Below, piece after piece: positions 23,976-62,697 of a stretch of DNA of 64,000 bases (within the stretch, counting starts at the first letter, position 1; every line of letters starts with the position of its first letter). The DNA is taken from NCBI RefSeq assembly GCF_964204645.1, contig NC_134031.1, forward strand, positions 8,556,001-8,620,000, given 5' to 3'. The DNA is from Tubulanus polymorphus (taxonomy: Eukaryota; Animalia; Nemertea). Below the pieces are notes generated by a model that was not told where the DNA came from, searched no databases, and saw only the letters and a program-made list of their open reading frames with translations. The translations under genes were made by a program, and so were the position numbers.

Positions 23976-23999
23976 ATGCGTAATTATTTTACTAAATAA

Positions 24000-24421: not shown

Positions 24422-24441
24422 TAATTTTTTTTTCTAAATAA

Positions 24442-24867: not shown

Positions 24868-24883
24868 TTTTTTAATTATATAA

Positions 24884-30574: not shown

Positions 30575-30661
30575 TTTATTTTTAATTACAGTTGTAAGTG
30601 CAATTATTTTTGGGTAAGTAAACATGATAAAAAATAAATAATTAATTTTTTTGTTAAATAA

Positions 30662-31912: not shown

Positions 31913-31944
31913 AATTTTAACTTTAATAAAAATTTATATAATAA

Positions 31945-32763: not shown

Positions 32764-32954
32764 GATATTAATTATATTTAATCAAATAATAATATTGGTT
32801 GAAAATTGTATAAAATAGTAGTTAATAAAAAAGGGCTTTAGGTATTAGGGTATCTAATAGGGTATCTAATACATGGGTAGGTATTAGGGTATATAATAGG
32901 GTATCAGGTATTAGGGTATCTAATAGGGTATCTTATACATAGGTATATAAATAG

Positions 32955-34666: not shown

Positions 34667-35018
34667 TAATAATAATTTAGATTTAGTTTCAATGGCTTTA
34701 TGATTTGACTTATTTTCTGGTATGATAGGTTTATCATCATTGGAATCATCTTTATCATCAGATTTGAATTTTGATTTATATATTACACCGGATAATATAA
34801 TAATTGTGATTTACCCAATCGTAATATATAGGTAATTATTTCTTCCACTATTAGAAGAATTAGATGGATTGTTATTTGAATCAATATCAGATAATTTCTG
34901 TGATTCATTTATATCAGTTAATTTCTTTTTCTTAGCTTTTTTTAATTCTTAAGATCTTTTACCTAATTCTCTTGCCCATTTAATTTGTTTCTCGGATCTA
35001 GGCTTTTTCTTGACGCCA

Positions 35019-35621
35019 TCACTCATTTATTTTAGTAAATTTTTGTTCTGATTCATTTTCTGTTTCGCCGTTTGGTTGTAGTACATCTGTTTCGTTCTTA
35101 CCTGATTTATATTCCATAGGTTTGATATTCGAAAATGTTATGACACAAGTAGAAATTAATGTCATAACCGATCCTAATTGGAATGAAGCGTATCCAACCC
35201 ATTTTTGTAATTCAGTCATAACTAAATAGTCATTTTTCAAATCACTATATAATTTATTTTCATCATCAATTGGTATTAACTGGTTACATAACTTAGAATA
35301 ACATTTGACAATACCATCTGAAATAGAATCATTTATTCCGGCTAATCTTGCCTCTTCATAAATCTTAAAATATTTTGTTACTTTATCTGGTTTCATAGCA
35401 TCTAATTCTTGAAAAGTTATTATTTTTCCCAAGAAATCCTTAGATTTCCCTCCAGCAATCAATAGTTCTAGATGACGCTTACAATATAAATAGTATTCAT
35501 AATCTATATTACAATTAACTTGAGCACAATTAGTTACAACTGTATCTTTATTATCACTTATACCCAAATCATCTAATGTTTTTTCAATATTAATATTATT
35601 CTTATTAGATTTCTTTGACAT
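35019..35621 (-). CDS. Polinton hypothetical protein (homolog of 60901-61504)
   Basis: Shared DENKLYSDLKNDYLVMTEL motif; TAAATG start. Confidence 0.7.
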   Translation of the reverse strand: MSKKSNKNNINIEKTLDDLGISDNKDTVVTNCAQVNCNIDYEYYLYCKRHLELLIAGGKSKDFLGKIITFQELDAMKPDKVTKYFKIYEEARLAGINDSISDGIVKCYSKLCNQLIPIDDENKLYSDLKNDYLVMTELQKWVGYASFQLGSVMTLISTCVITFSNIKPMEYKSGKNETDVLQPNGETENESEQKFTKINE

Positions 35622-35826
35622 TTATATTAGAGAAAAAAAAACAAAATAAATATTATAAGTATTCTTCAAATGATACTAGCTAGTTAAAGCTAAAGAATTT
35701 CTATTCGGATCTATTCAAAATATAAAGTATTCTCTTTTTGAAAAGAAAATATTAAAAATATAATAGAATTCACTGGTTAGTTGAAGTTATATAATTGTTA
35801 ATATTTTTTATTTGAGATTTTATTCT

Positions 35827-37064
35827 TCAACCACTTATTAAAGACTCAACGTATTGTTCATTATTCGGATCATTGTTCCATTGATCAATAAATTTCTTTG
35901 CCTTTGTTAACTGTTCTAAATATAACTGTCAATCTAGTTTATTAGATTTGATTTTATTTTCTTTATTTTCAAGAGGTCTTAGATTCTTCCAATTCCAAAT
36001 TAGTTTTTTATTGTATTCATCATTCATGTTAAATTTAGATATTGGTAACGTATGATCTATTTGGAAATAATCTCCATAATTATCATGTTCATTTTATCGT
36101 CGAATTGATATATTATCCATGATTTAAGAAATTCATCTGAACAATCCAATAAATTTGTTAGTGTTTCTGAATGCGTTTCTTTACTGAATAATTTTGATAA
36201 TCTAGATCTTAAACATTGTTAGGGTTTTCTGACTTTCGTCGAAAACCCTCTTGAAATTCTGTTGATTATTATATATTTTCCGCCGATTTCGTCAAATAAA
36301 ATTCATCTTCATTCAGATTCGGCAACTGACAGCTTCGAAACGAAATGTATAAATAGATACTGTAATAACGGTCTCTCTGAACCAACAGATTGTCTGAATG
36401 TACTTTCCATCCTATTTGAAACTTAAAATTACTTATTAGGTTACTGTAAATAAAGAATTGAATTGTTAGACAACAAGCACCGGCGAAATAACAGTTTGTG
36501 ACGTCATTTAGTAAGTAAATAAAGGAGGTCTCCGAGAATTTCCAAATCACGGGGGAGGGACTATACTGGGGTTAGACCATTCAACCAAAAAGAGGATTGC
36601 TCCGATAATATCCAAATCATCTCATTTTATTTTTTCCATCGAATACCCGGTAATTAATTTTTCCTTTCGATCACATGCATCCAGAAAACCCGTTATCGCT
36701 GCTTTGCAGCTATATTTTCATTTTAAAATTTAGATCTATTTGACGCCTTTCTTTTTGATATTTATTTTGATACTCATTATAATGTTCACGATTATCTTTT
36801 TTCCAATCTCTAATATATTCTGGATTATTTTCTCTCCATTTTTTTTTTCTTTTCTTTACATTTTTCTAGATTATTTAGATAATATTGTTTATTATATAGT
36901 TTATTACAAGTTTTACAAATATTTCGTAAACCATCTTTATAAATCTTATGTTTATTAAATTCTGTAAATGGCCCATCTAATTCACATTTAGAACATGTCT
37001 TCTGATAAATATTTATAACACCATTATTGTTTATATTTATAGCTTGTGATTGTTCCGGCTCCAT
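35827..37064 (-). pseudogene. HNH endonuclease of the giant-virus/phage type with N-terminal CxxC..CxxC, split by a HINE
   Basis: Joined translation KTCSKC..CKTC ... RRQIDLNFKMK|QCLRSRL...LLDCSDEFLKSWIIYQFDDKM..DNYGDYFQIDHTLPISKF...NWKNLRPLENKENKIK. Confidence 0.7.
36219..36716 (+). mobile_element. HINE family B short copy
   Basis: 5' TTAGGGTTTTCTGACTTTCGTCGAAAACCCT and 3' AGAAAACCCGTTATCGCTGCTTTGCAGCTATATTT. Confidence 0.75.
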
Positions 37065-38311
37065 TCATAATATAGATTTTTATTAAAAATTGGTTAATAT
37101 TTTAGAATCCTTTTCCAATTCTTCGACCAACGTCATCCTTTTTCATTCCTCGCTGCTTTTGATAAGTCGTTTCGATTCCTTGATATCTAAATCATACCAC
37201 TGGGCAAAAGCGCTCTTATAGGCGCGTTTTTGCTTAATGCGCTTGCGCTAATCTTAATTATATATTCATTCTATAAATTCTGTAAAATAGAAACAACTGA
37301 ACACAAAATTCAAACGCATGCGCACTAGGCAAAAGCGCACATACAGGCGTGCTTTTGCTTAATGCGCATGCGTTAATCATAATTGAAACGACTGAACATA
37401 AAAATTCACCAAACAGATTTACACAATACATATACAAGTATGTTCGGTCGTTTCTTCCAATACCTCATTTGATTTCTATATATAAAATCTATAATTACAA
37501 ACATTTTTTCAATTGCCGGTAAATATTTAACTACATCAACAAATGTTAAACTTAATCATTGGAGTCTTAATGTTTTTGAAATTCTTATATAGTTTCTTCT
37601 TCGATCTTTTGTGATTCTTGTGCTTCTACGTCAATTTCTATTGGTTCGATATCCATTGCTGTTGATTCCTCAGTCAGAAAGAGTATCTTGAGTTTCTCTA
37701 TCGCTTCTTGATGCGTATGACATTTTATTCAACTAAAAGATATCAGCGGTAACTCTAATTATCTAAAAGATACACTAAATACACTTAAATATATCTAAAG
37801 GTTTCATATTTAATGGCCCTAATAACTACAAAAAACAGTACTTACATTTAGATTTAGAATTGTAATCTATAAACTCCTAATTGCGTTTCGAGAGATAAAA
37901 TATCCTAAGCGTTATGTTAAATCATCTATTCAGTTCCGGTGCGATTTCTAGAATGAACACGTCTGCGATTATGACACGTCATCTCTATTCAGAGTTCCGG
38001 TACACCTTCTAGAATGTTCTACGCGTTTGCAGTATTATGACTCATATGTCTCGGCGTCATAGTAACAGCTGTGACAGCTGTGAATTTATAGATTTATTCA
38101 ATAGTTCATTACATGAAATGTATATAGGCTCAAATAGAATCTTGTTCTAGTATAAGCAAATGCTATGTATTATATCATTTATATATATGAATTATTTCAA
38201 TCACACTTTACTAACACTCGTACTCTCGTACTCTGATCTGAAAGCCTACTTTTCTAATTACTTATATATGTTATTCATTTATATTTTATTCATGTATATG
38301 AATATTTTAAG

Positions 38312-41650: not shown

Positions 41651-43318
41651 ATGCCTGCCGCTTCTGATATAATCATACATCCTTTACTATTACAGGACAA
41701 TTCCCAGTTGTCGTTAGATGGAAATTTTTATATGGATCAGGGATCCAATTTTGAGGACATCTGGAGGGACAATTCCCAGTTGTCGGCTACTTACGAGCAT
41801 ATAAAAAGACACAGGAGGGTTACGTTTAGCGATCCGGTTAAATTGCAGGAGGTACGTGCTGATATGGCGTGCTCGGGTGACAATATTAGTATTGATACGT
41901 CACACCCTAGAGGGGTTAATGGTCCGACGGATTCGGCAGAAGATGACCTTTTTAGAGATAGGAAGTATCATTTAGATTGTCACGAAGGCGCTTTTGATCA
42001 GTATAGGTACCCAGCAACCTCCGAATCAGCAATACAATGTGATCTTGTGTCATCAGGTTCAAGTAGTAGTAATAATTCACGATCGGAATGTCTTAATGAT
42101 CAGAGTAATATGGAAACTATTTTGTCAAAGATATCTAGTCAGGAGTCAATGTCGGAGAATTTGTGTCACTCGTTTGAAAGAGGACAGAACTTTCCTGTCA
42201 CCTCAAATGCCAGCAGTTTTCACCATCCGGTTGGGAATGGAATGTCCCATGAACAGGATAGAGGTCAAGTTGTTCTCACGTCTAAACCGAATATGCCAAT
42301 CAACGAAAATGTTGGGATAGGAGATTCGAACTCCGATTGTCAACCAACTGTTCACTGTCAGGAACAACTTCCACCTGTTACGATGACTTTAGGTAACACG
42401 TCAACCAACGACATAGGGTCCTTTTCCAGTCGGAACAACACTATTGGACAGGAGGCTTATTCCCCGTCAATCATGGCAACTGCCGCCAACCGAGTGACTG
42501 GTAGTCATTCAGGGACACCGTTAAACATTTTGATTGATACGGGTGCCGAAATTTCTGTACTGTCAAACAATTACTTCATCAATCATCCTCAGATATCGAA
42601 TGGCCCTTTGCAGGAGGGACAATTTCAGTCCGCCCGTGGGGTAGATGGTACTAAGTTTTATTTAAAAGGTGTTATTTCCGTAGATTTTGTATTAGGAAAT
42701 TTGGACGTGTCACATTCTATGTACTTGGTGGATGGAGTCACCTCGGACTTCATTCTCGGAGTTGATTTCCTGGAACGAAACCAGGCAGTTATTGATTATG
42801 CTAAAAAGGCTCTCTTGTTGCCAGGCGCCGACATAATTTACTTTAGTAATGATGTCATCTTGGGGAAATCTTCGTCGGTTAAAGTCACGCGTATGACTGT
42901 TATTCCCCCTTCATGCGATGTCACCGTAGACCGTAAGTGGTTAATTGACAAGTTTCATTCATCGATTGCAGCCTTTGAGCCTGTACATTATTTGAGAATG
43001 CGTGATCTCATGAGCGCAAGGTCAGTTGTTAGCGTCATGCCATCAAGGCATAGGCTTCGGGTCACGAACCCTGCGTCACGACACGTCACCCTCTCTGAAG
43101 ATACGTGTCGTAGTGATTCGTGGGCAGATGGGTGGTCACTTGACCGATCACTCAAAACAGAGGGGAAGTCAGGACAGCTTCCTCGGCCACCGAAGGTGTC
43201 TATCACACATGTGGAAGACCCTCAGACGTCAGACGAAATTTGTAAGTATAATCGAATTATTTGGAGTTTGGATCAAGATGCATACGTCCTATTGAAAATT
43301 ATGAATTGTATACGGTAA
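41651..43318 (+). CDS. Gypsy/Ty3-type retropepsin (aspartic protease)-containing ORF
   Basis: 555-aa ORF with ILIDTGAEISVL and DFILGVDFLERNQAVIDY motifs; no RT or integrase follows. Confidence 0.75.
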   Translation: MPAASDIIIHPLLLQDNSQLSLDGNFYMDQGSNFEDIWRDNSQLSATYEHIKRHRRVTFSDPVKLQEVRADMACSGDNISIDTSHPRGVNGPTDSAEDDLFRDRKYHLDCHEGAFDQYRYPATSESAIQCDLVSSGSSSSNNSRSECLNDQSNMETILSKISSQESMSENLCHSFERGQNFPVTSNASSFHHPVGNGMSHEQDRGQVVLTSKPNMPINENVGIGDSNSDCQPTVHCQEQLPPVTMTLGNTSTNDIGSFSSRNNTIGQEAYSPSIMATAANRVTGSHSGTPLNILIDTGAEISVLSNNYFINHPQISNGPLQEGQFQSARGVDGTKFYLKGVISVDFVLGNLDVSHSMYLVDGVTSDFILGVDFLERNQAVIDYAKKALLLPGADIIYFSNDVILGKSSSVKVTRMTVIPPSCDVTVDRKWLIDKFHSSIAAFEPVHYLRMRDLMSARSVVSVMPSRHRLRVTNPASRHVTLSEDTCRSDSWADGWSLDRSLKTEGKSGQLPRPPKVSITHVEDPQTSDEICKYNRIIWSLDQDAYVLLKIMNCIR

Positions 43319-46899: not shown

Positions 46900-47830
46900 A
46901 TCCGAAGAAATGGAAAGACGATGATCGCATGGCAGACGTGAAGCATATTAAAGAAGCAAAGCATGAGAAAATTGAACACGCGTTGGTTTTGTGGTTTTCT
47001 CCTGTTCGTGCAAAAAATATCCCTGTAACACAGGACATATAACGGACAAAAGCCCAGGCCTTCGGGACTGAACTCGCTATCGGTGATTTTCAGTACTCGA
47101 TGGATTACACGATTCAAAAAGCGCTTCGGAATATCAAATAGGAAATTATCAGGGGAAAGTGCAGGTGTAGAAAAAACCCTGATAGAGGAGGGAATATTTA
47201 AAGCAAAGGCCCTATTGAAGGATTATGCACCTAAAGATGTCTTTAATATGGATAAAACCAGACTCTTTTATCAGATGTTACCGGACCGTTCCCTCATTAC
47301 GTCCGAATTTGTCAAAGGCACAAAAAGGCCAAAACACGCATTTCTTTGGCTGTGTGTGCCAATGCTGATGGCTCACAGAAGATGCGATTATTTCTTTGTA
47401 AAGTTCAAAGTTAATTTGTACTGCAATAACCATAGTAATGTTAAGGCTTGGATGACAAGCCTGTTGTTTAACGACTGGTTAGATGATTTCAATGCCACAA
47501 TGAAGCGTGTCGATCGAAAGGTGCTTCTACTACTGGACAATGCGCCTTCACACATCGTTCCAGAATACGAGGACGGGGAGCTCCGGCTTTCAAATATATG
47601 ATGATGATGATGATGATGACGCCAGTAATGCAGACTGCTCTGATCATTCAGTTACAACATCAGCTGAGGTTAGGGTGGCTATTCAGACCATATTATGTTA
47701 CATAGAAAATAATTAAAACGCAAACGAAGATGACGTCGTTTCTGTAAATGATCTGAGGGCAAGATTAGATTCCCTTGTTCTCCAGTCATCAAAACAAACA
47801 GCTATTACTGATTTCTTTAAAAATAACTGA
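46900..47830 (+). pseudogene. pogo/Tigger (CENP-B HTH + DDE_1) transposase remnant
   Basis: IEHALVLWF...NIPVT, WITRFKKRFGI, DVFNMDKTRLFY, KAWMTS, VLLLLDNAPSH, C-terminal KQTAITDFFK; stops, frameshifts and deletions. Confidence 0.85.
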
Positions 47831-47896: not shown

Positions 47897-47960
47897 AAGA
47901 ATTGGAAAAGTAGGCTTTCAGATCAGAGGACGAGACACCACTCGTCACCACAAGTAATTT
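47897..47960 (+). repeat. Left TIR of element 2
   Basis: Reverse complement of 62625-62697, apart from a short duplication on the right and terminal mismatches. Confidence 0.9.
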
Positions 47961-47973
47961 TTTTTCCTAATAA

Positions 47974-50900
47974 ATGGGGGAGAATGAACACCAGCCAGAA
48001 AACAATAATGTTAATAAAAATCAATATTATTGCACATATTGTAAAAAATACGTCGATACATCTAATAAAACACGACATGAAAAAACTGCAAATCATATAA
48101 AAAATGTAATAGATTTTGAAACTCCAGAAAATTCCAATGAAAGAAAAGAAAGATTAGAAAATATGAATGTGGATGAAATAAAATGTGAAGTTTGTAATGA
48201 ATTTATAGTAAAAAGGAATTATAATAGACATCTCGAATCACAAAAACACCATCAAAATTTGAGTAATAATGTTTTAGGAAAAGATTATTTTGATGATAAA
48301 CCTCAAAAAGTAAAAAAAACCAACTTCAAAAACTAAATCCATTTCAAATAAACCTTACATGGAAAATGTTAGAAATTATATTGATTCACTAGAACAAAAG
48401 ATACAATTGAAATTTTAGAAACATTACATAGTAAAATTGGTCCTGCAGCTATTATATTTAGATTTTTTAAAGGTACAACAATAGAAGATTATAGTACATT
48501 TAATGAAATACTAGAAAAAATACTAGATTTGATAACAGATGTTGAATATCCAAAAATTAGTATCTCTGGGAAAGTAAGTTTTATAAAGTCAGAAGAAAAA
48601 GTGAATTATAATATTCAAACACACTCTGAAGAAATAATTTCAAAAACACAAATAAAAGAGAAGTTAGAAAAAATATTTAATGAATTTAAACGTCATATTG
48701 AAGAAAGATATTTTGAGGGTTCTGGCTTAACATTGAATGAAATTATATATTTAGATTTAAATGTTTATAATACAAAAAGAAATAAAACATCAAAAAGTAA
48801 TAAAATGTTTAAAAATGATTCAAACTTTACAACAGAAAAGGATATTAAAGCATCATCTTATGTTAAATTACCATTTACAACAAAAGCAGTAATAAATATT
48901 CAAAATAAAGATAATAAATGTTTTCTATGGTCAATTATTAGTTGCTTACATCCAACACAGGAAAATGTTTGTAGAATAACAAATTACCGGAAATATGAAA
49001 CATTATATAAAATTTATCAATATCCAGTAACTATAAAAATGATTCCTAAAATAGAAAAAGTTGATAATTTAAAAATAAATGTATTTGAATTAATGCAATT
49101 ACCAAAGACAAAAGGTGAAAATATTAAAGATTATACATTGGAAGCTTTATATTTAACAGAATATTATGATGATGAAAATGCTATAGATTTGTTATATTAC
49201 AAAAAAGATGAAAATGAACATTATATGTGGTTAAAACAAATTGATTTATTCTTTAGAACAGAAAGTGATCACCATAATAAAATTTATCTATGTAGAAAAT
49301 GTTTATCTAAATTTATGACTGAGAATACATTATTAAAACATAAAGAATTATGTGATAATATAGATTTTTGTAATGCCAACAGAAAAAGATTATAAATTGA
49401 AATTTACTAATCATAAATTTAAGAATATTGTTCCATTTGTAATTTATGGGGATTTTGAATCGTTGAATAAAGAATTAACTGATCAAGATAGAAAAGAAAT
49501 ATATAACAAAAAGCAATTATTAAAATCAATGGATAAAGGAAATGAATTAAATGAAGACACAATACAAGACCAACCAATTATAAATACAATTAAAAAAGTT
49601 CATCAAAGAGCTGCTGCTTATGGAATTTATATAAAATCAAATTATCCTGAATTATATGAAAGTCAATATATTTCTATTAGAGGTGAAAATGTAGTTAATG
49701 ATTTTTGTGATAAAATGATTGAATTAGAAAGTGATTTTTCAAAATTATTAAACAAAAATAAAAGAATAGTTATGACAAAAGAAGATGAAATTGATTTTAA
49801 TTATGCAACTCATTGTTGTTATTGTGAAAAACGTTTTTATTCATTTGATAAAAAAGTTAGAGATCATGATCATTTAAATTCAAAATATCGTGGAGCTGCT
49901 CTTGAAGATTGTAATTTACAAGCTAAAAAAGTAAATTTCGTTCCAATATTATTTCATAATTTATCAGGCTATGATACCCATCTATTTATAAAACAATTAT
50001 CAAGGAAATTGGGCACAATTAATCAAGAAATAGAAGAATATAATGCTATGAATGGTGTAAATGTAAGAAAATATGATTTTAAACTATTAGCTAAAACATC
50101 TGAAAATTATGTTTCATTTCAATTTGGTTGCATTAGATTTCTAGATTCTTATAGATTTCTAGCAAGTTCATTAGATAATTTATCAAAAAGTTTAGTTGAT
50201 AATGATTTTCTAATAACTCGATATTATTATCCAAATGACCAAGATTTTAAATTATTGAGATATAAAGGTGCAATTCCTTATTCATTTTATAAAACACACA
50301 ATGATTTTAATGTAACAGAATTATTAAAAGATCAATTTTATGATCAATTTAAAGAGGAGTATGTGAAAGACGAAGTGTTTAATAGAACATTAAATGTTTG
50401 GAACCATTTTAAGATGAAAAATCATGGCGAATTAGTTGATTTATATCTAAAATCAGATGTCATGATATTGGCTGACATATTTGAAAAATTTAGAGAAGTT
50501 AATTTGAATCATTTTAATGTTGATCCTTGTTATTGCTACTCTAGTCCTGGTTTAACCTGGCAATGTGGTTTAAAATATACAAATGTAGAATTAGATTTAT
50601 TAAAAGAACCAGATATGGTTTTATTATTTGAAAAATCAATTAGCGGTGGAATTAGTGGTGTTATGGGAGATAGATATTTTAAAGCAAATGATGAATATAA
50701 ATTATTATATATTGACGCCAATAATTTATATGGCTGGGCAATGATGCAACCTCAACCATACAAAAATTTTATATTAACAGAAGTTGAAAATGATGATAAA
50801 ACTGATTGGGAAAGTGCAATTGCGAGTTTAAAAGATGAAGCACCAATTGGTTATTTCTTTGTAGTTGATTTAGAATATCCTGAAAATATAAAGTTTAAAA

Positions 50901-53028
50901 CAAGAAACTTACCTTATTGCCCAGAACATTTAACTGTAGATGATAGTTATTTAAGTGAATACCAGAAGAAAATAAAACCGAAAGATCATGTTTTTACAGA
51001 AAAATTAATACTTACTCAAAATAATAAATACAATTATATTGTTCATTATAGAATGTTAAAATTTTATCTAAAACAAGGAATGAAATTAAAGAAAGTACAT
51101 AGATATATTGAATTTAATCAATCGAAGTGGTTAGAAAAATATATAGATTTCAATACTCAACAGAGAACCATATCAAAAACAGATTTTGAAAAAGATTTCT
51201 TCAAATTAATGAATAATAGTTTTTATGGTAAAACATGCGAAAATATTAGAAATAGAAATGATATTGCATTAGTAAATAATTCTGAAAGATTAAGACATTT
51301 ACAATCAAGTCCTAGACATTTAGGAAATAAAAGATTTGAAGATTATTTTACAGCAGTTAAATTAAAAAGAACGTCAATGAAATTAAATAAACCTATATTT
51401 ATTGGTTCAACTGTTTTAGAAGTATCAAAATTATTAATGTATGATTTTTATTATAATGTTTTACAACCACTTTTTGGGGAAAAGCATATTGAAATATTAT
51501 ATTTTGATTCTGTAACAGCTGACACACCAATATTATTAAAATGTAATGATAAAATATTGATAAGAAGAATTTCAGAAATAATTCCAAAACAAAATGAATG
51601 TTATATTTCATATGGTGAAAAAGAATTAATACAAATAAATGGATTAATGGATGTTTGGACAAGAAATGGATGGAAAAAATTAAAGAATATTATTAGGCAT
51701 AAAACAAATAAGAAAATCTATAGAGTTAGAACTAAATTAGGTTCGTTGATGTTACAGAAGATCATAGTTTAATTAAACGAAATGGCGATGAAATAAAACC
51801 AACTGATATAAAAATTGGAGATGAATTATTACATAAAAGATTTTTCTAAAGAATGAATCATATGTCATTTGATGAAATAATTGATAATATTTATAATACA
51901 GAACCCGAAACATTAGAAGAAAAAGAATATTTTATCAAAGGATTTTTCATGGGTGATGGTTCAGCAGGTGTGTATGATTATGTTAATCGCACTCAATATT
52001 GCTGGTATTTATGCAATCAAGATTTGAAATTATTAGAAAGAATAAAGAAATTCTGTGAAGAAGTTTATTCACATAAAACATTCAAAATCATAGATGTTAT
52101 GAAATCATCGCAATGTTATAGAATACATGTGAATAATCCTAAAGATTTTGCTATAAAATATAATGACGAATTCTATATTCATGCAATAGTGAAAAGTAAT
52201 ACTTCAACTAAAGAAAAGATAATTCCAGATTATGTATTAAATGTAAAAAATAATTTAAGAAAATGGTTCTTCATTGGATTCTACGCAGCAGATGGTACTA
52301 AAAGTTTCAAAAATCGCAAAACAATATCTTTAGCTCAAAAAGGAAAAGTTGCTATATCAGGATTGAATATATTATGCAATTCATCAGGTTTTAATATGAA
52401 TATTGGATTGATTAAATCTAAACCAAATTGCTTTAATTTAAGCCATGTAGAAAATGAGTTAACAGAAGAAGTTAAAGATTTATTTGAAATATATAACCCA
52501 AAAGATTATGTTTATGATTTATCAACTGAAGATCGTACATTTAACTGTGGATTTCCATTAATAGCCAAAAATACTGACGCCTACATACTAAAAATCAAGA
52601 CAAATGACATAACAAAAGACTTAAAAACATTAAAACATCATTTTGATTTTAGCAATTATCCCAAAGATCATGAACTATTTAGCAATGATAATAAAAAGAT
52701 TCCTGGTAAGTTTAAAGATGAATTAGGGGGTGATGAAATGAATGAATTTGTTGGGATAAGAAGTAAAATGTATAGTTACAGAACAAAAGATCATGAAGCT
52801 AAAAAGTTAAAAGGAATAACAAAACATGTGGTTGATAAACATATAGAATTTCAAGATTATATAAAGTGTTTATATAAATCAATTGTAATGAAACATAAAA
52901 TGAATTGTTTAAGATCAGAAGATCACGAGATGTACATTAATGAAGTTGAAAAAACTAGTTTGAATCCATTTGATGATAAAAGGCATATTTTAGATGATGG
53001 TATAAAAACATTACCTTATGGCCATTAA
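47974..53028 (+). pseudogene. Protein-primed family B DNA polymerase (N-terminal zinc fingers, terminal-protein region, EndoVII-like insert, exonuclease, palm) containing an intein; several frameshifts and stops
   Basis: YGDFES, VRDHDHL, FHNLSGYDTHLF, YLKSDV, YIDANNLYGWAM, KLMNNSFYGK and YFD|intein|TD across ORFs 47974, 48529, 49373 and 51853. Confidence 0.92.
51509..52572 (+). mobile_element. Intein with dual LAGLIDADG homing endonuclease in PolB motif C
   Basis: Starts SVTADTPILL; block [10 protein letters not shown]; endonuclease motifs FIKGFFMGDG and FFIGFYAADG; block F YVYDLST; ends LIAKN followed by Thr+1; one frameshift at ~51744 and one stop at 51847. Confidence 0.93.
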
Positions 53029-53810
53029 AACATAAAATCAATATCATCATACTCGAAATCACTATTGGCTTCTTCATTTTCATTTAATTGTTCTTGTATA
53101 ATTTGTTTAGGTTCTTCCATTTCATTTTTCTCATTTAAATATAGTTCTATCTTGCACCACATTTCATCTCGCTCTCTTTGTTTCCTTTTGTTTGTTAATT
53201 CATCAAATGGAATTATAATATCTATGTTTAAATAATTTACAATCTTATTTAAAAGGAATTCATAATTTATTGAATCTGTTATTCTATTTTCCAAATGATA
53301 CATTAATATTTGTTTGAATATTTTTTTTATATTTTCCATATCTTCTTCTGTTAATTTAGGTTTTTCATAATAATCGTTAAATAATGAATATAAATACATT
53401 TTCTTTTGTTTTGTGTTAAATGTTGACGGAATAATTGTTTTTATAATATCTTTTTTAGTTATTTCACCATTTTTATCTTCTATTATTTTCATTTTTTCAA
53501 GCCATTGCTTATATTCTGGTGTATGATCTTCTATAGAAAATATTTTAAAAATTTCATCTAGATAATTTAATTTTGGATCTATGAGAAAATTTCTAGTTTT
53601 TTCTTCACCCCATAAATTCTTTTGCCATCCACATTCATTACAAAATAACACAGTACCTTCTTGTCTTAAGGTCGCATAACTACATTGTGGACATTTTCGT
53701 TTATAATTTATTGGTAATAGATCTTCATTAAGCTCTTGGTATTTTCTTACGTTTTCTTTATGTTTTATTGTTCTATTATGTAGATTTGAATTACTTGTTG
53801 TAATAATCAA
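53025..53810 (-). CDS. VLTF3-like (poxvirus A2L family) late transcription factor homolog
   Basis: Zinc ribbon CPQC..CNECG plus C-terminal IKKIFKQI...SINYEFLLNKIV...RDEMWCKI, resembling VLTF3 family motifs; start codon uncertain. Confidence 0.6.
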   Translation of the reverse strand: MIITTSNSNLHNRTIKHKENVRKYQELNEDLLPINYKRKCPQCSYATLRQEGTVLFCNECGWQKNLWGEEKTRNFLIDPKLNYLDEIFKIFSIEDHTPEYKQWLEKMKIIEDKNGEITKKDIIKTIIPSTFNTKQKKMYLYSLFNDYYEKPKLTEEDMENIKKIFKQILMYHLENRITDSINYEFLLNKIVNYLNIDIIIPFDELTNKRKQRERDEMWCKIELYLNEKNEMEEPKQIIQEQLNENEEANSDFEYDDIDFMF

Positions 53811-53820
53811 TTTACAATAT

Positions 53821-54351
53821 TTACAATAATGTTTTTCTTGTTAATTCATTATATTGTTTTTCTAACTTTTCAACTGTTTCTTTATTATCTGGTAACGTTA
53901 TCTCATATTTTATTTTTTCTAATAAATTATTTTTTCTTTCATTGAATTCAGTTTCAAATTTATTAGAAATTTTATCTATATGTGCTTTACGAAATTGATG
54001 ATTCTCCCAATCTTCTATATTTTCAGGGCTATATTTCATTCGACAAGGCTCACAGAAATGATCTTTTATATTATCCTTATCATAGAGTAAGAAAGGTCTT
54101 TTCCAAATAATTTCAGGTTCAACTTCAACAGAATTACTATTACTTTCATAACTATCAACATTAGCTGTTGCGCCATTAATTTTACACTTCTCTGAATGTT
54201 TTTTAACATAATTTCTTGAGAATAATTTATTACATTTTGGACAGTTTAGTTTAGGGGGTTTATAATTTTCATCATGTTTTTTCATATGTCGAGCCATATT
54301 ACTTTTTCTTAGAAGTTCACCACAAATTTCACATGGTATCTTCTCATCCAT
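53821..54351 (-). CDS. C2H2-type zinc-finger protein
   Basis: CEICGELLRKSNMARHMKKH, CPKC..H...C, CEPC...H.....H. Confidence 0.75.
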   Translation of the reverse strand: MDEKIPCEICGELLRKSNMARHMKKHDENYKPPKLNCPKCNKLFSRNYVKKHSEKCKINGATANVDSYESNSNSVEVEPEIIWKRPFLLYDKDNIKDHFCEPCRMKYSPENIEDWENHQFRKAHIDKISNKFETEFNERKNNLLEKIKYEITLPDNKETVEKLEKQYNELTRKTLL

Positions 54352-54409
54352 TTATTAGGGAAAAAAATTACTTGTGGTGATGAGTGGTAATTTTTTTATG
54401 TTATAAATA

Positions 54410-55197
54410 ATGGTAGAATTAAAAGAATACAGAATATTTGTTGATTCTAGAAGACTTACAAATTATAAATCTCATAATTTATTAATACAATTAGATAGAG
54501 AATTTCAGAATTGTGTAGATTTGAAATTAGTAAATATAAGTTTATGTAACTCTTTTTACAATATATCAGATAAAACTGATGAACATAGAAGCCTTTTTAT
54601 TTTTGATAAACTTAAAAATAAACATTTTCAACTTATGATTACACCAGGATTATATAATTTAGAAACATTAGCGCAGGAAATTAATAGAGAAGCTCGGATT
54701 ATGTTAGGTAGTGATTCTAAATTTAATATTAAATTCATAAAACGTGAGAGCTCTAATAAAATTAAAGTAAAGTTTGATGATGAATATTATAAACCTCATT
54801 TATTTATGATAAGAAGACATGTTTACATGGTAAAAAAATCTTTTGCTAAACTGTTAGGAATTCCTCCAGATAAATTTATTGTTGGAAACATATACGGTAT
54901 ATCAAATTTAATACCTTTTACGCATTTTATATTTATTGCAATTTAATTGATCCTACAAAAACATTTGAAGCAACTAAATATATAACTTGTAATTCTAGTA
55001 TATTAAACATTTTACCATTGAAGAATGTTAAACAATTTGGAACGCAAATAAATTATAATTTAGCTGAATGTGATTTTAAACCTTGTATTTCACATTTCAA
55101 TAATTTTAAATTAGAAATAAGAAATCATAATGGTTATTTAATTGATTTGAATAATTTTCCTGTGATATATGAATTAGTTATAAGACATAGAGAGTAA
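54410..55197 (+). pseudogene. Minor capsid protein (penton), one frameshift near 54930
   Basis: NSFYNIS, ITPGLYNLETLAQEIN, FAKLLG; the next frame gives YCNLIDP...LEIRNHNGYLIDLNNFPVIYEL. Confidence 0.75.
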
Positions 55198-55213
55198 TTT
55201 TTTCATTATATAA

Positions 55214-55570
55214 ATGAATATAACTGTTGGACCGAGTATATGTTTTGGATTTGATTTTAAACGTGAGAAAGAAATGAAATTTAACATTAATGATGTAATT
55301 ACACAAATCAAAAATATTGCATTTTCTAATGAAACAACATTTAAGTATGAAAAAACAATAGATAAAGAAACTTTTAATGTAGAAAAGATTAATAATTTAA
55401 TTAGAGAATCTTTAAGATTTTATGAATTAGATGAAGATTTTATCATCGATGATATTAAAAAAATAATAATTGAAATATATACAAATGAAACTAGTAATGA
55501 AATAAATGTTGAATTAATCATCACTAAGATAACTAAATATTTTGAAGATAGTAATTTTTTTGATAAATAA
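55214..55570 (+). CDS. Polinton hypothetical protein
   Basis: Conserved with element 1; TAAATG start. Confidence 0.7.
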   Translation: MNITVGPSICFGFDFKREKEMKFNINDVITQIKNIAFSNETTFKYEKTIDKETFNVEKINNLIRESLRFYELDEDFIIDDIKKIIIEIYTNETSNEINVELIITKITKYFEDSNFFDK

Positions 55571-55801
55571 ATGAGTGATAATAAGTGGATAATAACTGGA
55601 TTATATAATGGAGCATTACTATCAGTTGGAACTGTTGGTTATTCAATGGTATTAAAAAAAGTATTTAAAATGGGAAGTGTTAATGTTGATAGATTTGATA
55701 TAAATGATATCTTAAAATTAACATTAGCAGTTACTTTATCTAATTTAACTATTGATTATTTAGAAAAACAAAAATATATTCCTCCCATAATAAATGCATA
55801 A
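55571..55801 (+). CDS. Small putative membrane protein
   Basis: Conserved with element 1; hydrophobic. Confidence 0.7.
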   Translation: MSDNKWIITGLYNGALLSVGTVGYSMVLKKVFKMGSVNVDRFDINDILKLTLAVTLSNLTIDYLEKQKYIPPIINA

Positions 55802-55817
55802 TTTTTTTGCTAAATAA

Positions 55818-56243
55818 ATGGCTTCTGCAATTATAACTATTAGAGGATCAGCAATTGTTAACGCTTTAGCATTTACTGGTGGAGGTTATTTATTTAAACA
55901 TATTGATAAAAATGGATCATTAACAGAACAAAAAAAAAAACATAACTTAGCATTAGAAAAATACAATAAAGCTGCAGAAGAATATAGAGAAAAGAGGCAG
56001 AACTATATGGATTACATCAACAAAGAATTATATGATCAGAAGATTTCACATAGAGATTTTCAATTAGTCGATGATGCAATGAGTTTATATAACGCGCTAA
56101 CCAATAAAGAAAAATTACATCTATACAAACCTAAATTATCAGATTATTATACCCCAAGTAAAGAACAACAGAAATATGAAATAATTTGGATTTTAGGTGG
56201 AACAGTTATTGTTATATTTGTAGCATATAAATTTACTAATTAG
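55818..56243 (+). CDS. Putative virion membrane protein
   Basis: Gly/Ala-rich hydrophobic N-terminus (IVNALAFTGGGYLF), helical core and C-terminal TM; conserved with element 1. Confidence 0.7.
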   Translation: MASAIITIRGSAIVNALAFTGGGYLFKHIDKNGSLTEQKKKHNLALEKYNKAAEEYREKRQNYMDYINKELYDQKISHRDFQLVDDAMSLYNALTNKEKLHLYKPKLSDYYTPSKEQQKYEIIWILGGTVIVIFVAYKFTN

Positions 56244-56262
56244 TAATTTTTTTTCTAAATAA

Positions 56263-57561
56263 ATGCAAGATAAAGTTGATAATATTGATATTATTCCTCA
56301 TGATATAAATAAAACTAAATTAAAAATATATTTAGAAAAACAAATATTAGAATTTGAAAGTGACTTAAAGATAAAAAAGAAAAAATATTTAAAAATAAAA
56401 ATTATATATTATCTCATTATTAGTGGTTCGGTTACAATTAGTTCTGTAATAACATTTCTAGCAATATTCAGTCCATTAACACCTTTAGCTATATCAATTG
56501 GTGTATTAGGATTAAGTTCAAGTGTTTTAACTGGTATAAGTTCAAAATTAAATATAAAAAGTAATAAAGAAAAAATTAAAACTAATATAAAAGAAATTAA
56601 TAAATTAAAGAATACACTAGATTATATAATAAGTTTAAAACAAAGAATTAATGAATTATTTGAAATAATCAAAAAGAAATCAGAAACAGAAACAACTTCT
56701 GAACAGAATATAAATTCCAAAACTAGTAAACTTAAATCAAATAAAGTTCCAATTGAAAAACTTTTACCGAATGGATTAATTGATGCAACAGATCAACAAT
56801 TAGAAGATTTAAATAATATATTTTCTGATAAAGCAATTAGAGAAATTATTAGTATAAGGCTTGCATCTGATAAAATTGCGCATGATAAAAGTATAAGAGA
56901 TTTAAAAATTAGAACTTTAGAAAAAGAATTAACTGATAAAAATAAAGAAATAGAACAATTAAAATTAGAAAGAGATATTAAAGTTATTGAAGAAATTGAA
57001 TTTAAAAAAAGAAATACATATTTAGAAAAAGAAATTGATGATTTAGAATATAACATAGAATTACAAAAAGAAGAAATTAAATTATCATTAAAATCATATG
57101 ATTGTAATATTAATAGATTAAAAGTTATTTTTAAAGATTTATTGATAAAACCAAATTCTGAAATATCATTGAAAGATAGAATAAAGTTATTATTTAAATT
57201 AGAAGGAATAACAATTCTTTCAATTCTAACAGCTGTAACTATGTTATTTACAACAATTGGTTTAGCAATATCAAATGCTTTAAAATCTACTCCTACTCCA
57301 AATAAACCAGATAAACCCCCAGGTAATAATTCTATACAAGATAAGGTTAAAGATGGTTTAAAGAAATTAGCAAAATATTTATGGGAACTATCTAAAAAAT
57401 CTGCTGCAGCTTTACCAGGAATTATTGCATCAATTGTTGGTTTTATATTGAAATCTGCTGGGAATATTCTTAACTTTGCTGCTGAACATATTATTTTATT
57501 TTTAATTACAGTTGTAAGTGCTATTATTTTTGGGTTAGTGAATATGATTAGAAATAAATAA
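56263..57561 (+). CDS. Chimeric TM/coiled-coil ORF produced by an internal deletion joining two genes
   Basis: First ~126 aa match element 1 24442-24808; the remainder matches element 1 from ~26745. Confidence 0.7.
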   Translation: MQDKVDNIDIIPHDINKTKLKIYLEKQILEFESDLKIKKKKYLKIKIIYYLIISGSVTISSVITFLAIFSPLTPLAISIGVLGLSSSVLTGISSKLNIKSNKEKIKTNIKEINKLKNTLDYIISLKQRINELFEIIKKKSETETTSEQNINSKTSKLKSNKVPIEKLLPNGLIDATDQQLEDLNNIFSDKAIREIISIRLASDKIAHDKSIRDLKIRTLEKELTDKNKEIEQLKLERDIKVIEEIEFKKRNTYLEKEIDDLEYNIELQKEEIKLSLKSYDCNINRLKVIFKDLLIKPNSEISLKDRIKLLFKLEGITILSILTAVTMLFTTIGLAISNALKSTPTPNKPDKPPGNNSIQDKVKDGLKKLAKYLWELSKKSAAALPGIIASIVGFILKSAGNILNFAAEHIILFLITVVSAIIFGLVNMIRNK

Positions 57562-57581
57562 TTAATTTTTTTGTTAAATAA

Positions 57582-58829
57582 ATGAGTGGGAGTTATATAA
57601 GTCCTTCTAAGATTTCTAGAATATCTAATGCTATTAAAGCAGAAAGATCACATCATATAATTACTCATAATCCTTCAAATATTAATCCTGATGAAACTTT
57701 ATATGTTAGAATTCCTCGATTAACACAAAATACTTTTTATGTTCCAAATAGTAGTTATTTATCAGCTGATATAAAAGTAACTGGTCATGATAATAATTAT
57801 GTTGTTGATAATTTTGGGAGATATTTGATTAAAAAATTTACTATAAAGATTGGACCAGAAACAGTTTTCTCATTAGATGATTATAATTTATTTATGCATT
57901 ATAAAGATTTATGGTTAACTAAAGAAAATAGAAATAATATGATATTTCAGGGTATTCAATCGGAAAACCAAAATAAATTAAGATCAGGAGCTAATGACGC
58001 AATAGTAACTCGTGCCACAGATAATTTGATTAAAAAGATTTATGGAAGCAAATATAAAATTCCATTAGACTTTGAATTGATAAATAATAATGCACCTTTA
58101 TATAAATACGCAATTCAAGAAGATATTATATTTGAGATAACATTTGCTCCTGTAAATGAAATTGTATTATCTAGCGTTGTTAAAGATATGGGTTATAAAT
58201 TATCGAATATATGTTTAGAATATGACACAGTAACTAATGAAAATATTGCTAGCACAATTCAAACTCAATACAATCAAGGATTTTCATTATTATATGATTA
58301 TATTGATAAATTTAAAACTGTAACTATTAATGCAAATGATGAAATAATTAATGAGAATATTTACTTCCCAAGAAGATCTATTAAAGGTATATTAATATTT
58401 TTTACCATTGCAACATATTCTAATGGCGCAATGAAGGTAGATAATTATTATAATCCTGAAATAACAAAAGTAGAAATAACTATCGAAGGAATAGCAAATA
58501 AAATATTTTGTCAAGGAATGAGAATGATAGATCAGTGGCCAGAAATAAGAAAACATTTCATGAATGAAAAAGTAAAATCATTTGAAAATTGTAATATTAA
58601 TCAAATTGATTATTATACCGGCAATAAATATGCATTATGGTTAGATTTTAGAACAACAGAGGATGATTGATTACATGGTTCTGGGAAAAAACTACAGAAC
58701 ACTAAAGATGGAATACAATTATTTATGAAAAAGAAAAAAGGAAGCTTAAATTTTAAAATGCACATTTATATTATATCTGACGCACAATTAAATATTGTAA
58801 ATTCACAATTAGATAGTATTCAATATTAG
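57582..58829 (+). pseudogene. Major capsid protein, single internal TGA at 58668-58670
   Basis: The frame continues after TGA (LHGSGKKLQNTKDGIQL...DAQLNIVNSQLDSIQY), matching element 1. Confidence 0.78.
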
Positions 58830-58859
58830 AAATATAAAGTTAAAATTGAGGATATATAA

Positions 58860-59987
58860 ATGGGTGGTAAAAAAACTCCTAATACTAAAGAACAATATTT
58901 AAGAAATTTATATTACAACCCTGAGAGTTCGGTTGCTTATTCTTCTACTAAAAATATATGGCGTCAAGTAAAACAAGATAAATTAGATAAGATAATCCCA
59001 CAAAATTTAGTTAAATATAAAGATATAAATCAATTTATGTTAGAACAACCAACATATACAACACATAGATAAATTGTTAGAAATTATAAAACTCGTAAAA
59101 CTATGGTAAGTTATGTAGATCAACAGTGGCAAGGAGATTTAATTGATATGAAAAATGTTAAGAAAGATAATAATGATTATTGGTGGTTATTGAATATAAT
59201 TGATATTTTTAGTCGTTATGTATGGAGTTTCCCACTTTATAGAAAAGATGCTGTACAAACATCAAATGTTTTAAGAAAATTTCTTTCGGATGATAAACTA
59301 AAACCAGAAAAAATACAATTTGATGATGGAAAAGAGTTTGATAATTCACTTGTTCATGAACTCTTAGATAATCATAATATTAAATATTTTTCAACAAAAT
59401 CGGATAAAAAAGCAGCAGTTGTTGAACGATTTAATAGAACATTAAGAACAAGAATGTGGAAATATTTTACCGCAAATAATACTTTTAAATGGATTGATGT
59501 TTTACCAAAATTGATAGAAGGATATAATAATTCTTATCATTCTTCTATTGGAATGAAACCTATTGATGCTAGAAAACCTGAAAATGCTGAAATTGTTTGG
59601 AATAATTTATATGGAGCATTTCTTGTAGATGATTTTGGTGAACCTAAATTTAAAGTTGGTCAAAATGTTAGAATTTCTAAGTATAAAAAGATATTTGACA
59701 AGGGATACGATCGAAATTTTACTAGAGAAATATATAAAATAAAAAAGGTAATAACAACAAAACCATATGTCTATAAATTAGAAGATTTAGATGGTGAAGA
59801 AGTTGATGGGTATTTTTATGAAGAAGAATTGAGTTTAACTACTGAAAATCTAGAACAAGAATATAAAATTGAAAAAGAATTAAAAACAAAAACTATTAAA
59901 AGAAAAAAATATTCTTTAGTAAAATGGATTGGATGGCCAGATAAATTCAATGAATGGATATTATCAAGTAAAATTAAAAATATATAA
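58860..59987 (+). pseudogene. rve integrase with chromodomain, single internal stop at 59070-59072
   Basis: WQGDLIDM, IDIFSRYVW, IQFDDGKEF, VERFNRTL (DDE); YKIEK...LVKWIGWPDKFNEWI chromodomain. Confidence 0.92.
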
Positions 59988-60596
59988 ATGAATAAGGAAT
60001 TATTCATATTTGAGCCTCATAATATGTTAATTTCTGGCGTAACAAATTGTGGAAAAACTTATTTTGTATCAAATTTATTAGAAACTGTTTATGAAAACTA
60101 TTTTGATAATATAGTATTATTTTGTCCAACATATGAATTTAATCAAACTTATGATAGAAATATTACTAGAAATAATAAATTTATTATATTAGATCCTAAA
60201 ACAGTAAAAGAAAATTTAGATAATTGTATTAAAATAGCAATAGATATTTATAAAGGATCAAATACATTATTCATTATAGATGATTGTGCAAATTTACATG
60301 ATTCAAAAATTGGAGAGAGTGAGTTATGTTATTTAGCTTTTTCTGGCAGACATTTTGGGATAATAACTTGGGTTTTAAATCAAAAATATAATTCAATTGT
60401 TAAAGACTTTAGAGAAAACATTAGATTTCTAGTTTTATTCTACAATAAAGATAGAAAATCGATGAAAAATGCACTTGAGGAAAATGATATAATTCCACAT
60501 GATTTACATAATGAATATATGGATAAGTTGAAAAATATTAAAAGATCAAAATTACTATTTAGATTACAACACCCATTTAAATATGAATTTATTTAA
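59988..60596 (+). CDS. A32/FtsK-like genome packaging ATPase
   Basis: Walker A GVTNCGKT, Walker B LFIIDD, GRHFGI..W.LNQ motif. Confidence 0.9.
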   Translation: MNKELFIFEPHNMLISGVTNCGKTYFVSNLLETVYENYFDNIVLFCPTYEFNQTYDRNITRNNKFIILDPKTVKENLDNCIKIAIDIYKGSNTLFIIDDCANLHDSKIGESELCYLAFSGRHFGIITWVLNQKYNSIVKDFRENIRFLVLFYNKDRKSMKNALEENDIIPHDLHNEYMDKLKNIKRSKLLFRLQHPFKYEFI

Positions 60597-60599
60597 ATT

Positions 60600-60870
60600 C
60601 AACTAGCTTGTTAATCTAGTTGAATTCTAGTTACATTCTAGTTGAATTCTAGTTATTGGTAGTTGGAACAAAAATCAACTAGATTTAACAATATTTTAAC
60701 TAGCTTGTTAATCTAGTTTAATTTTAGTTACATTCTAGTTGAATTCTAGTTGTTAGTAGTTGGAACAAAAATCAACTAGATTTAACAAGAAATAAACAAA
60801 AACAACAATATTTCAACTAGCTTGTTAATCTAGTTGAATTCTAGTTACATTCTAGTTGAATTCTAGTTAC
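60600..60870. repeat. Intergenic tandem repeat, ~97-bp unit x2.5 built from 11-bp CTAGTT subunits
   Basis: AACTAGCTTGTTAATCTAGTT begins at 60601, 60698 and 60815. Confidence 0.9.
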
Positions 60871-60900
60871 AACATCATAACTAATTTTTTTGTTATATAA

Positions 60901-61504
60901 ATGGTAGGTGAAAAGAAAATAAAATCTAAAAATGGTGATGTTCCAATTGAAAAAACTAGATGATTTAGGAATAACAGAAAACAAATTAATTCCAGATGAT
61001 GGTGTTTTAAATAATGTTTCAACAAATAATAATTATGAATAATATCTTTATTGTAAACATCAATTAGAAATATTAATAGCATCTGGAAAATGTAAAAATT
61101 TTGTCGGTAAAAATTTAACTTATAATGAATTAGATACAATGAAATCAGATGAAATTATTAGATTATTTAAGATTTATGAAACCGCGAGAACAGCTAGAAT
61201 TAATGACGCGATATCAGAAAATGTAGTAAAAGGTTATAGTAAATTATGTAATTATATGCTGCCAATTCAAGATGAAAATAGATTATATGCTGATTTAAAA
61301 AATGATTATTTAGTTATGACCGAATTAAATAAATGGATTGGATATTTATCATTTCAATTAAGTGGATTTATGACATTATTATCTACTGGAGTTATAACAT
61401 TTTCAAATATTGAAAGTAAAAATATTTCTATAATAAATGAGCGAGGTGGAAGAAGTGAAGGAATTAACTGTGAAGAAAAAACCGAGATCACAGAAACAAA
61501 TTGA
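60901..61504 (+). pseudogene. Hypothetical protein homologous to 35019-35621, frameshifted near the 5' end
   Basis: TAAATG at 60901; intact C-terminal 121 aa from 61139. Confidence 0.65.
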
Positions 61505-61805
61505 ATGGTCTCGGCAATTAGGAATTAAATCACAAGAATATAAAAAAGCTGTAAAAGAAAAAATAAGTAATAAAAATGTTAATAAAAATAGTGAAAATAT
61601 TGTTATTTCTACTCCTTCTAATAACAGAATATTTGATAAATGTCTATATTTTACAGTTGGATTTGTAATTGTATTCATTTTGATTGGGTGTAATTGGTAT
61701 AAGAAATCAAATAAAATTCATGATATTAATAATTCTGAAACAACTGCTATCAAAAATGAAAATAATTCTGAAATTCCAAAATTGACAATAAAAAAAATGG
61801 ATTAA
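61437..61805 (+). CDS. Hypothetical basic protein with a TM segment
   Basis: KKPRSQKQIEWSRQLG matches the element 1 remnant near 34950-35015 (KKPRSEKQIKWARELG). Confidence 0.65.
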   Translation: MSEVEEVKELTVKKKPRSQKQIEWSRQLGIKSQEYKKAVKEKISNKNVNKNSENIVISTPSNNRIFDKCLYFTVGFVIVFILIGCNWYKKSNKIHDINNSETTAIKNENNSEIPKLTIKKMD

Positions 61806-61992
61806 TATTTTAGAAAAAAAGCAAAAAAATAATTTTTTTAATTAATTGAATATTAATTGAATATCACCATGTGGGTGCCATACGGCACCATCTCACTTCT
61901 TTTGTCTATCTATGCGGAGCAATTAAATTGTCCAGATAAGTCATTTCGGATTCTAGATATTCATTATTTTTATTAATTTATTTTTTTTAAAT

Positions 61993-62317
61993 TTAATCAA
62001 CAATTTCTAAATCATGATGTCCATCTTCATTTTTTCCATGATAGATTATTTTAAATCCTTCTAAATCTTTTAATTCCTCTGTACTCAATGAAACCCATTT
62101 ATCAGGTAAAAATACTTTAAATTCTCGCGATGTACTAACATTACAGTAACTTAAATTCGCTGATATTTCCTCTATATTTAGTTTTTATCTTTTCTAATTT
62201 CAATATTTTATGTTCATTTTCTTTTGTAACATCAACTAACTTTTTTATTTCAAATTGTTTTTTTGCTGGTTTTATTCTGTTATTTATTGTTGCTAAGAAT
62301 GCTTTTCTATCTCCCAT
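61993..62317 (-). pseudogene. Homolog of 22261-22614, frameshifted
   Basis: Manual translation gives FKVFLPDKWVSLSTEELKDLEGFKIIYHGKNEDGHHDLEIVD. Confidence 0.6.
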
Positions 62318-62624
62318 TTATAAGGAAAACAAATTACTTGTGGTGATGAGTGGGGATTACTTCCCCTGTATATAACAAACACGCTATTAACCGTTCTCAC
62401 CCAAGCCTCACAGCATCTATTTATCTGGGCACAGTTGACACGCAATCACTGAACTACAGTAATAACACACGCGTTAATAACCGTTCTCAGTAGAGACTCA
62501 CTGTATCGATCTATCCGCGCGCAGCTGTTGTTACGCGCACTCACTGTATATGTGTACCACAGAGAGCAATCGTCCGTTCTCACTAGAGCCTAGCTGTGAT
62601 GAGTGGTGTCTCATACTCAATTGA

Positions 62625-62697
62625 ATTATTACTTGTGGTGATGAGTGGTGTCTCGTCCTCTCGTCCTCTGATCTGAAAGCCTACTTTTCCAATTACT
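62625..62697 (-). repeat. Right TIR of element 2
   Basis: Ends ...AAAGCCTACTTTTCCAATTACT (5'-AGT terminus on the minus strand), followed by TSD GTTCTT. Confidence 0.9.

Follow-up and report, generated by a model that had tools for sequence, protein, structure and literature searches.

The window analysed here (64,000 nt of contig NC_134031.1 of the nemertean Tubulanus polymorphus) holds a Polinton/Maverick element, element 2, and a related, truncated one, element 1 (Table 1). Element 2 is an island of 22-26% GC with terminal inverted repeats at about 47900-47958 and 62628-62694 (67 nt, 87%), and the Pfam families DNA_pol_B_2, rve and Pox_A32 score above cut-off in it. Pfam gave no match for ORFs 57582-58670 or 54410-55197; the capsid labels that we use for element ORFs are our assumption and denote putative capsid genes. 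No maturation protease was matched among the 16 element ORFs scanned, and no RNA polymerase among the element ORFs scanned. The element is damaged: pPolB contains four stops and one frame change, and two further genes contain one stop each. An intein with a LAGLIDADG-like domain (about 51509-52572), itself broken, sits in motif C of pPolB; neither element 1 nor the pPolB of the sister element described below has it. Giant-virus PolB inteins presumably occupy this same insertion site. The accessible text of PMC11161782 mentions polinton pPolBs with homing endonuclease insertions.

Our main subject, a zinc-finger/VLTF3-like (ZnF/VLTF3-like) gene, lies beside this intein-bearing polymerase, as the first-pass annotation had stated, in convergent arrangement, and a common 58-bp gap separates it from the divergent gene at 54410. 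Its reported absence from element 1 is borne out by tblastn with the gene or its relatives, which returned nothing there at E<=0.05; a 117-aa gene occupies its place. Elsewhere in the window we noted a retroviral-type aspartyl protease ORF (41651-43318), a 31-bp minisatellite array inside element 1 (28600-30400) that is a source of spurious long ORFs, and an NKRF-like host gene at 10682-12541 that has no introns and encodes XTBD, G-patch and R3H domains, and whose nearest Atlas clusters are from molluscs and then arthropods. Just left of element 2, at 47200-47600, lies what we take by eye to be a DDE-transposase-like remnant.

Table 1. Features of the ZnF/VLTF3-like gene and of the elements, in window coordinates
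Feature	Position	Strand	Basis
Element 2 (Polinton/Maverick: pPolB, RVE integrase, A32 ATPase)	47900..62694	.	Terminal repeats and Pfam; several genes broken
pPolB in pieces, convergent with ZnF/VLTF3-like gene	47974..53028	+	Pfam DNA_pol_B_2, LAGLIDADG_3; TIGR01445
3' piece: U1-type finger, C4 ribbon, helical VLTF3-like core, acidic tail	53025..53840	-	271-aa stop-to-stop frame
5' piece: 176-aa ORF, C2H2-type fingers, true ATG	53821..54351	-	Sequence matches to intact relatives
Frame-break region between pieces	53821..53850	-	Frame change between HSPs to intact sister protein; X5 read lengths
U1-type C2H2 zinc finger	53739..53837	-	Pfam zf-U1
C4 zinc ribbon CxxC-x13-CxxC (CPQC...CNEC)	53631..53693	-	Alignment A2, model strands
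Helical VLTF3-like core, ending in SINY...KI and D.MW motifs	53157..53600	-	hhalign without ribbon; cyclin/TFIIB-like fold, Z 6.8 (middling)
Promoter-like region: CACCACAAG motif, T run with T at -10, TAAATG over start codon	54352..54391	-	
Element 1 (related, truncated)	about 20700-37300		

On the minus strand, 53810-53025 forms an open frame of 261 codons followed by a stop, and the CxxC-CxxC ribbon and C-terminal pattern F..I...SINYEFLLNKI...D.MW..I previously read in it are indeed present. Its description as an intact 261-aa ORF fails on several counts: a TTG start, no promoter, a cut finger, relatives that are fused proteins and a broken frame. The codon at 53810 is TTG, the first in-frame ATG (53492) leaves just 155 aa, and ATG 53849 meets a stop two codons further on. 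Neither ATG has the TAAATG context, and it is ATG 54351 that carries this start signal of the element. The stop-to-stop frame opens at 53840 with a U1-type finger (residues 2-34, E 1.1e-6, 28.7 bits, cut-off 22), and a start at 53810 would truncate it. The upstream ORF 54351-53821 matches the N-terminal part of the protein P0001 (E 3e-19) and the 53840-53025 frame its C-terminal part (E 6e-57); with P0002 the values are 3e-8 and 5e-28. Because both pieces match single intact proteins, we treat them as one gene, and tblastn of the intact sister gene finds a single frame change, located at their junction. By these sequence matches, 54351-53025 is almost certainly one split gene, its frame broken near 53830-53850, and the 261-aa ORF is the 3' part of a frame-broken ZnF/VLTF3-like gene. 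The window copy is dead as assembled; the break may be a mutation or an assembly error, and the data fit either.

Reads help to place this copy among others. In X5, which comes from another sample of the same species label, the gene is covered 200-300 deep from 12% of the run. Since at that depth 353 of 5593 reads are at least 99% alike, the gene family is multi-copy. At the break 210 of 286 X5 reads differ from the window in length. The same holds for the sole covering contig in X2 and in X3, which are near-identical and derive from a single sample, and for part of the X1 depth, so most copies probably lack the window's break. Element 1's layout is seen elsewhere in the species in 338 reads, and coverage rises about twofold on passing into the shared gene at 54410. 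Methylation decay was considered as the source of the read differences and rejected, since the changes run in a direction that does not agree with it.

A search of 1.84 billion representative sequences with the frame returned five proteins at E<=0.001, three of which cover the core: P0001 (47% identity, residues 285-546 of 697), P0002 (39%, residues 181-421 of 446) and P0003. With P0004 and P0005 the match is confined to fingers or ribbons, and we regard P0003 as a doubtful relative, as it scores below shuffles and no locus was found for it. Both pieces of the broken gene stand in a single chain in P0001, P0002, P0006 and P0007, and the intact relatives are zinc-finger/VLTF3-like fusions of 446-707 aa. 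At the locus L121 an intact 697-aa gene converges on a pPolB of 1336 aa that is likewise intact and has no intein; L122 is the remainder of this sister element. Beside the sister's ZnF/VLTF3-like gene we observed a nucleoside/nucleotide kinase-like gene (L122 9287-9928; TIGR00041, E 3e-10, below cut-off), which is absent from element 2. By crude counts in AT-rich DNA, dN/dS against the sister is 0.40/0.56 (about 0.7) for the ZnF/VLTF3-like gene, and by the same crude counts 0.13/0.56 for pPolB, 0.15/0.73 for the putative capsid gene and 0.09/0.58 for the ATPase. Its dN is thus about three times that of the core genes at similar dS, and such raised protein divergence fits drift as well as conflict.

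The resemblance to VLTF3 is genuine though remote. Pfam Pox_VLTF3 (PF04947) gave no match for the ORF at E<=0.1 and none for P0001-P0003 at E<=1, and because the Pfam gathering score is not reached we file the protein as VLTF3-like and not as a PF04947 member. Searches of PHROGs, NCBIfam and PDB sequences with the ORF gave nothing useful. Word-index protein searches, confined to near lengths and so not reaching fused forms, passed 0 of 431 candidates with the ORF; with the four-row alignment A2, again at near lengths, 1 of 2123 passed, namely P0003 itself. Scans of viral contigs with the ORF, A2, P0001, P0003 and the sister's putative capsid found no loci. Comparisons were also made with VLTF3 sets collected by motif scans. 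The giant-virus set has 120 proteins, of which 78 with a full C-terminus were used (4 of the 120 Pfam-checked as Pox_VLTF3), and the pox-type set has 37 ORFs from 39 loci, 36 of them distinct (3 of the 36 Pfam-checked). Against an HMM of the 78 giant-virus proteins the frame scores 16.6 bits, with a maximum of 6.2 for shuffles (996 reported of 1000), and outscores all 228 other frames of the window. On the pox-type profile the core scores 24.7 bits (shuffle maximum 9.1), P0001 25.4 and P0002 24.3; P0003 reaches 5.8 and falls under its own shuffles on both profiles. By hhalign the probability is 93.9 over 194 columns for the giant-virus profile (maximum of 50 shuffles 7.6) and 97.1 over 194 columns for the 36 pox-type proteins (maximum of 20 shuffles 0.5); without the ribbon the values are 68.2 and 94.9. 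The four ribbon cysteines are invariant in 4/4 rows of A2 and align with the VLTF3 ribbon, and single pox-type VLTF3 proteins are 22-27% identical to the Polinton protein, which by sequence appears somewhat closer in fit to the pox-type than to the mimi-type.

Structure prediction points the same way. A model built from a 7-row alignment (pLDDT 78.5) found entomopox VLTF3 (E 3.2e-6) and cowpox VLTF3 (E 5.9e-6) as its best fold matches in BFVD, with TM 0.51-0.59 between models on both sides. Among the 12 BFVD matches at E<=0.001, eight are named VLTF3 or late transcription factor, two are unnamed and two are named otherwise. The ESM Atlas places the protein in a Pox_VLTF3 cluster (0.96, 10/10). 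Solved structures gave TFIIB chains at Z 6.8 (rmsd 4.2, 93 aligned) and 6.3, which are middling values tied with cyclin/ORC rows; Foldseek returned no solved structure at E<=0.001, its top rows being TFIIB at E 0.16. The earlier VLTF3 call thus stands by profile-profile comparison (97.1 and 93.9), fold search and Atlas, and does not reach the Pfam cut-off. On profiles and structure together, distant homology to VLTF3 is very probable. That the gene was acquired from a nucleocytovirus, as had been suggested, is not supported by a tree of 28 rows (12 of the 36 pox-type, 12 of the 78 mimi-type, three Polinton-type and P0003, with no entomopox, asfar-, irido-, mriya- or PLV-type VLTF3). It shows three long-branch groups, and the Polinton rows, grouped at 79/83 on a long branch of their own, nest in neither sampled viral group, so that no donor can be named.

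The elements themselves are mosaic. Between elements 1 and 2 the middle block is 89-92% alike, and pPolB and integrase/ATPase are 75-77% alike. Element 2's pPolB is 81-82% identical in nucleotides to the sister's and 75-77% to that of element 1, and integrase/ATPase is likewise nearer the sister. Because the pPolB of element 2 is nearer the sister's and the middle block nearer element 1, the ZnF/VLTF3-like gene travels with one replication module. Two further observations concern the layout of element 2. The 432-aa ORF at 56263-57561 combines two sister genes joined by a deletion in which a 442-aa gene that element 1 has kept was lost, and three 97-bp repeats rich in CTAGTTGAA words (60598-60908) lie between the ATPase and the next gene.

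The TAAATG promoters named in the first-pass annotation are real and more poxvirus-like than it said. In a list drawn up blind to the motif (ORFs of at least 55 aa in elements and host DNA), TAAATG starts occur at 11/24 in element 2, 8/24 in element 1 and 0/43 in host DNA, and the background among all ATGs is 7%, 7% and 2%, respectively. Curated 5' ends, from which internal ATGs of broken genes (including L122 6535) and opposite-strand shadow ORFs are omitted, carry TAAATG at 12/13 in element 2 and 14/14 in the sister (26/27 overall); two of the 13 in element 2 (60901, 58860) were not chosen blind to the motif. A T at -10 is found at 24/26 TAAATG starts versus 19/70 non-start TAAATG (Fisher P-value = 1e-8). 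Coupling of stop and start codons as the source of TAAATG was ruled out, as in only 3/26 cases is the TAA the stop of an upstream frame longer than 100 codons. Vaccinia late promoters have TAAAT(G) over the start codon and a conserved T at ten bases upstream, with other Ts around it (accessible text of PMC11980589 and PMC5294985). The element starts match this published consensus; the motif of a helper, if there is one, may differ. TAAAT-type initiators lead to 5' poly(A) leaders through slippage of the viral polymerase, according to the available part of PMC6211774. Since element 1 keeps the TAAATG signals without the ZnF/VLTF3-like gene, the gene is an accessory that the signals do not need. 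A CACCACAAG motif is found at the start of this gene, at the start of pPolB and in the terminal repeat. We also noted a CACCACAAGTAAT motif (47946, 54379, 62345, 62640) before exactly three genes, namely pPolB, the ZnF/VLTF3-like gene and a small right-end gene, and in the right terminal repeat. It may mark a second class of promoters or a site where a protein binds, and is missing ahead of the sister's corresponding starts.

We tentatively propose that the intact protein may be an optional TFIIB-like adaptor linking a helper's late transcription machinery to the element's TAAATG promoters. Helper-type transcription of the element seems slightly favoured by the evidence and, given such transcription, an adaptor role would be reasonably likely. 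A co-infecting large DNA virus with a poxvirus-type polymerase would read the late-type start signals; the C2H2 fingers would hold element DNA, and ribbon and core would touch the polymerase. The adaptor would boost the element, with machinery drawn from the helper as a by-product. The gene could amplify the late programme. It cannot start it, because it bears a late-type signal itself, and it cannot be required, because element 1 keeps the signals without it. Nor does a VLTF3 gene imply a helper polymerase, because a phycodnavirus without its own RNA polymerase encodes VLTF3, as the accessible text of PMC12085832 has it.

It is improbable, in our view, that the protein is an autonomous nuclear activator, the fingers binding the element and the TFIIB-like core and acidic tail recruiting host RNA polymerase II with no helper. 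Fingers plus an acidic tail with a hydrophobic end are the usual build of a nuclear activator; the protein has fingers and an acidic tail that ends in hydrophobic residues, and the element is nuclear-integrated and multi-copy. The start signals argue otherwise: T at -3, which the element starts carry, is a poor Kozak context, and element 1 would be without an activator yet retains its signals. Moreover, where the initiator lies over the start codon, a transcript has no leader unless slippage of a poxvirus-type polymerase adds poly(A) (PMC6211774, in its available part). The phycodnavirus mentioned above, at least in what is accessible of PMC12085832, is on the side of the activator, as it has VLTF3 and no RNA polymerase.

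The rapid protein divergence and patchy presence of the gene, and the loss of typical giant-virus VLTF3 motifs from the core's first half, would suit a decoy or inhibitor, a VLTF3 mimic that jams the helper's late transcription and shields the host population. We find this unlikely, as the element's own genes appear to depend on the same late machinery and the ribbon cysteines and C-terminal motifs are retained. Quite unlikely, too, is a drifting passenger or exapted protein, that is, a captured VLTF3 that has another job (for example terminal DNA binding in replication) or does little. Movement with one pPolB module, the shared CACCACAAG motif of gene start, pPolB start and terminal repeat, and the dN/dS of about 0.7 agree with it; however, the frames stay open across 52% (P0001) and 61% (P0002) protein divergence and the promoter is conserved. 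A stand-alone 261-aa VLTF3 with its own start has in its favour that the 261 codons are open and is highly improbable given the TTG start, the missing promoter, the halved finger, the fused intact relatives and the reads, most of which differ at the break.

Returning to the adaptor, if that reading is true, the finger/VLTF3 fusion would give the parasite its own specificity factor with which to use a borrowed polymerase. An element-wide start signal of vaccinia-late type bears directly on the mode of transcription of animal Polintons and on their possible need for a helper. It also leads one to expect a large DNA virus of this host that is yet to be discovered. More speculatively, and as a possibility rather than an expectation, this lineage of animal Polintons could be endogenous virophages of a poxvirus-like invertebrate virus. 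All their genes would then be designed for reading by a late polymerase of poxvirus type, and some Polinton copies would carry their own sequence-specific VLTF3, a zinc-finger/TFIIB-like chimera, to redirect the helper's late transcription to themselves.

Several known systems can be set beside element 2. The yeast linear elements pGKL likewise combine pPolB with a TAAA-type initiator; by the available text of PMC6211774 they have an RNA polymerase of their own and lack a capsid gene, whereas no RNA polymerase was matched among the element 2 ORFs scanned. Virophages use the late promoter motif of their helper; in Sputnik and mavirus, as in element 2, the genes are preceded by a late promoter motif that a large virus also has (PMC6428243, accessible part). 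Their helpers are mimivirids and their dependence has, according to the same text, been shown experimentally, whereas the motif of element 2 is poxvirus-like. The entomopoxvirus-associated PLVs are also small integrating viruses and were proposed to be hyperparasites of poxviruses. By the accessible account in PMC11296320 they were physically found with occlusion bodies; here the link is through promoter form and factor only. The main text of that paper, as far as available, has no match for VLTF, transcription, motif or TAAAT.

VLTF3 had been called foreign to the canonical Polinton gene set, but VLTF3 in polintoviruses is already published. Stony coral polintoviruses are reported to have it in the accessible text of PMC11131425, which cites an earlier subgroup from Krupovic and Koonin 2016. 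VLTF3 is further given for about 30% of two PLV clusters (Zephyr-group PLVs; 10.64898/2026.06.19.733378, available part) and appears in figure legends on a MELD virus (PMC8502044) and on PLVs (10.1101/2022.07.28.501842), both sources being partly accessible. In these coral, Zephyr-group and MELD systems a VLTF3 homologue is, as here, an accessory gene of a Polinton-type element; compared by description only, the accessible accounts mention no zinc-finger fusion or promoter analysis. VLTF3 is therefore not diagnostic of Nucleocytoviricota, as others have noted before, contrary to a sentence in the available text of the mriyavirus paper, by which VLTF2/3 is undetected outside that phylum (PMC11253617). 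Three further sources have, in their accessible parts, no bearing on the gene (10.64898/2026.10.13.758929, 10.1101/2024.03.23.586382, 10.64898/2026.07.28.741278). The literature searched, comprising few subscription papers, describes no ZnF/VLTF3 fusion and no TAAATG or vaccinia-late-like promoters in animal Polintons; it covers papers without their supplements, where coral or adintovirus annotation tables may list such genes. A Polinton with VLTF3 has thus been described before; as far as searched, the zinc-finger fusion and the poxvirus-like promoter setting are new.

The closest comparison is with VLTF3 itself. Poxvirus VLTF-3 (vaccinia A2L; PF04947 and PF08792) and nucleocytovirus VLTF3 likewise have a C4 ribbon followed by a helical core, collinear with the Polinton protein. 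To this plan the Polinton protein adds N-terminal C2H2 fingers and an acidic tail, and it is 446-707 aa long versus 224-232 aa for poxvirus VLTF-3. Vaccinia A2L is an intermediate-class gene, going by the accessible text of PMC11980589, whereas the Polinton gene has a late-type signal.
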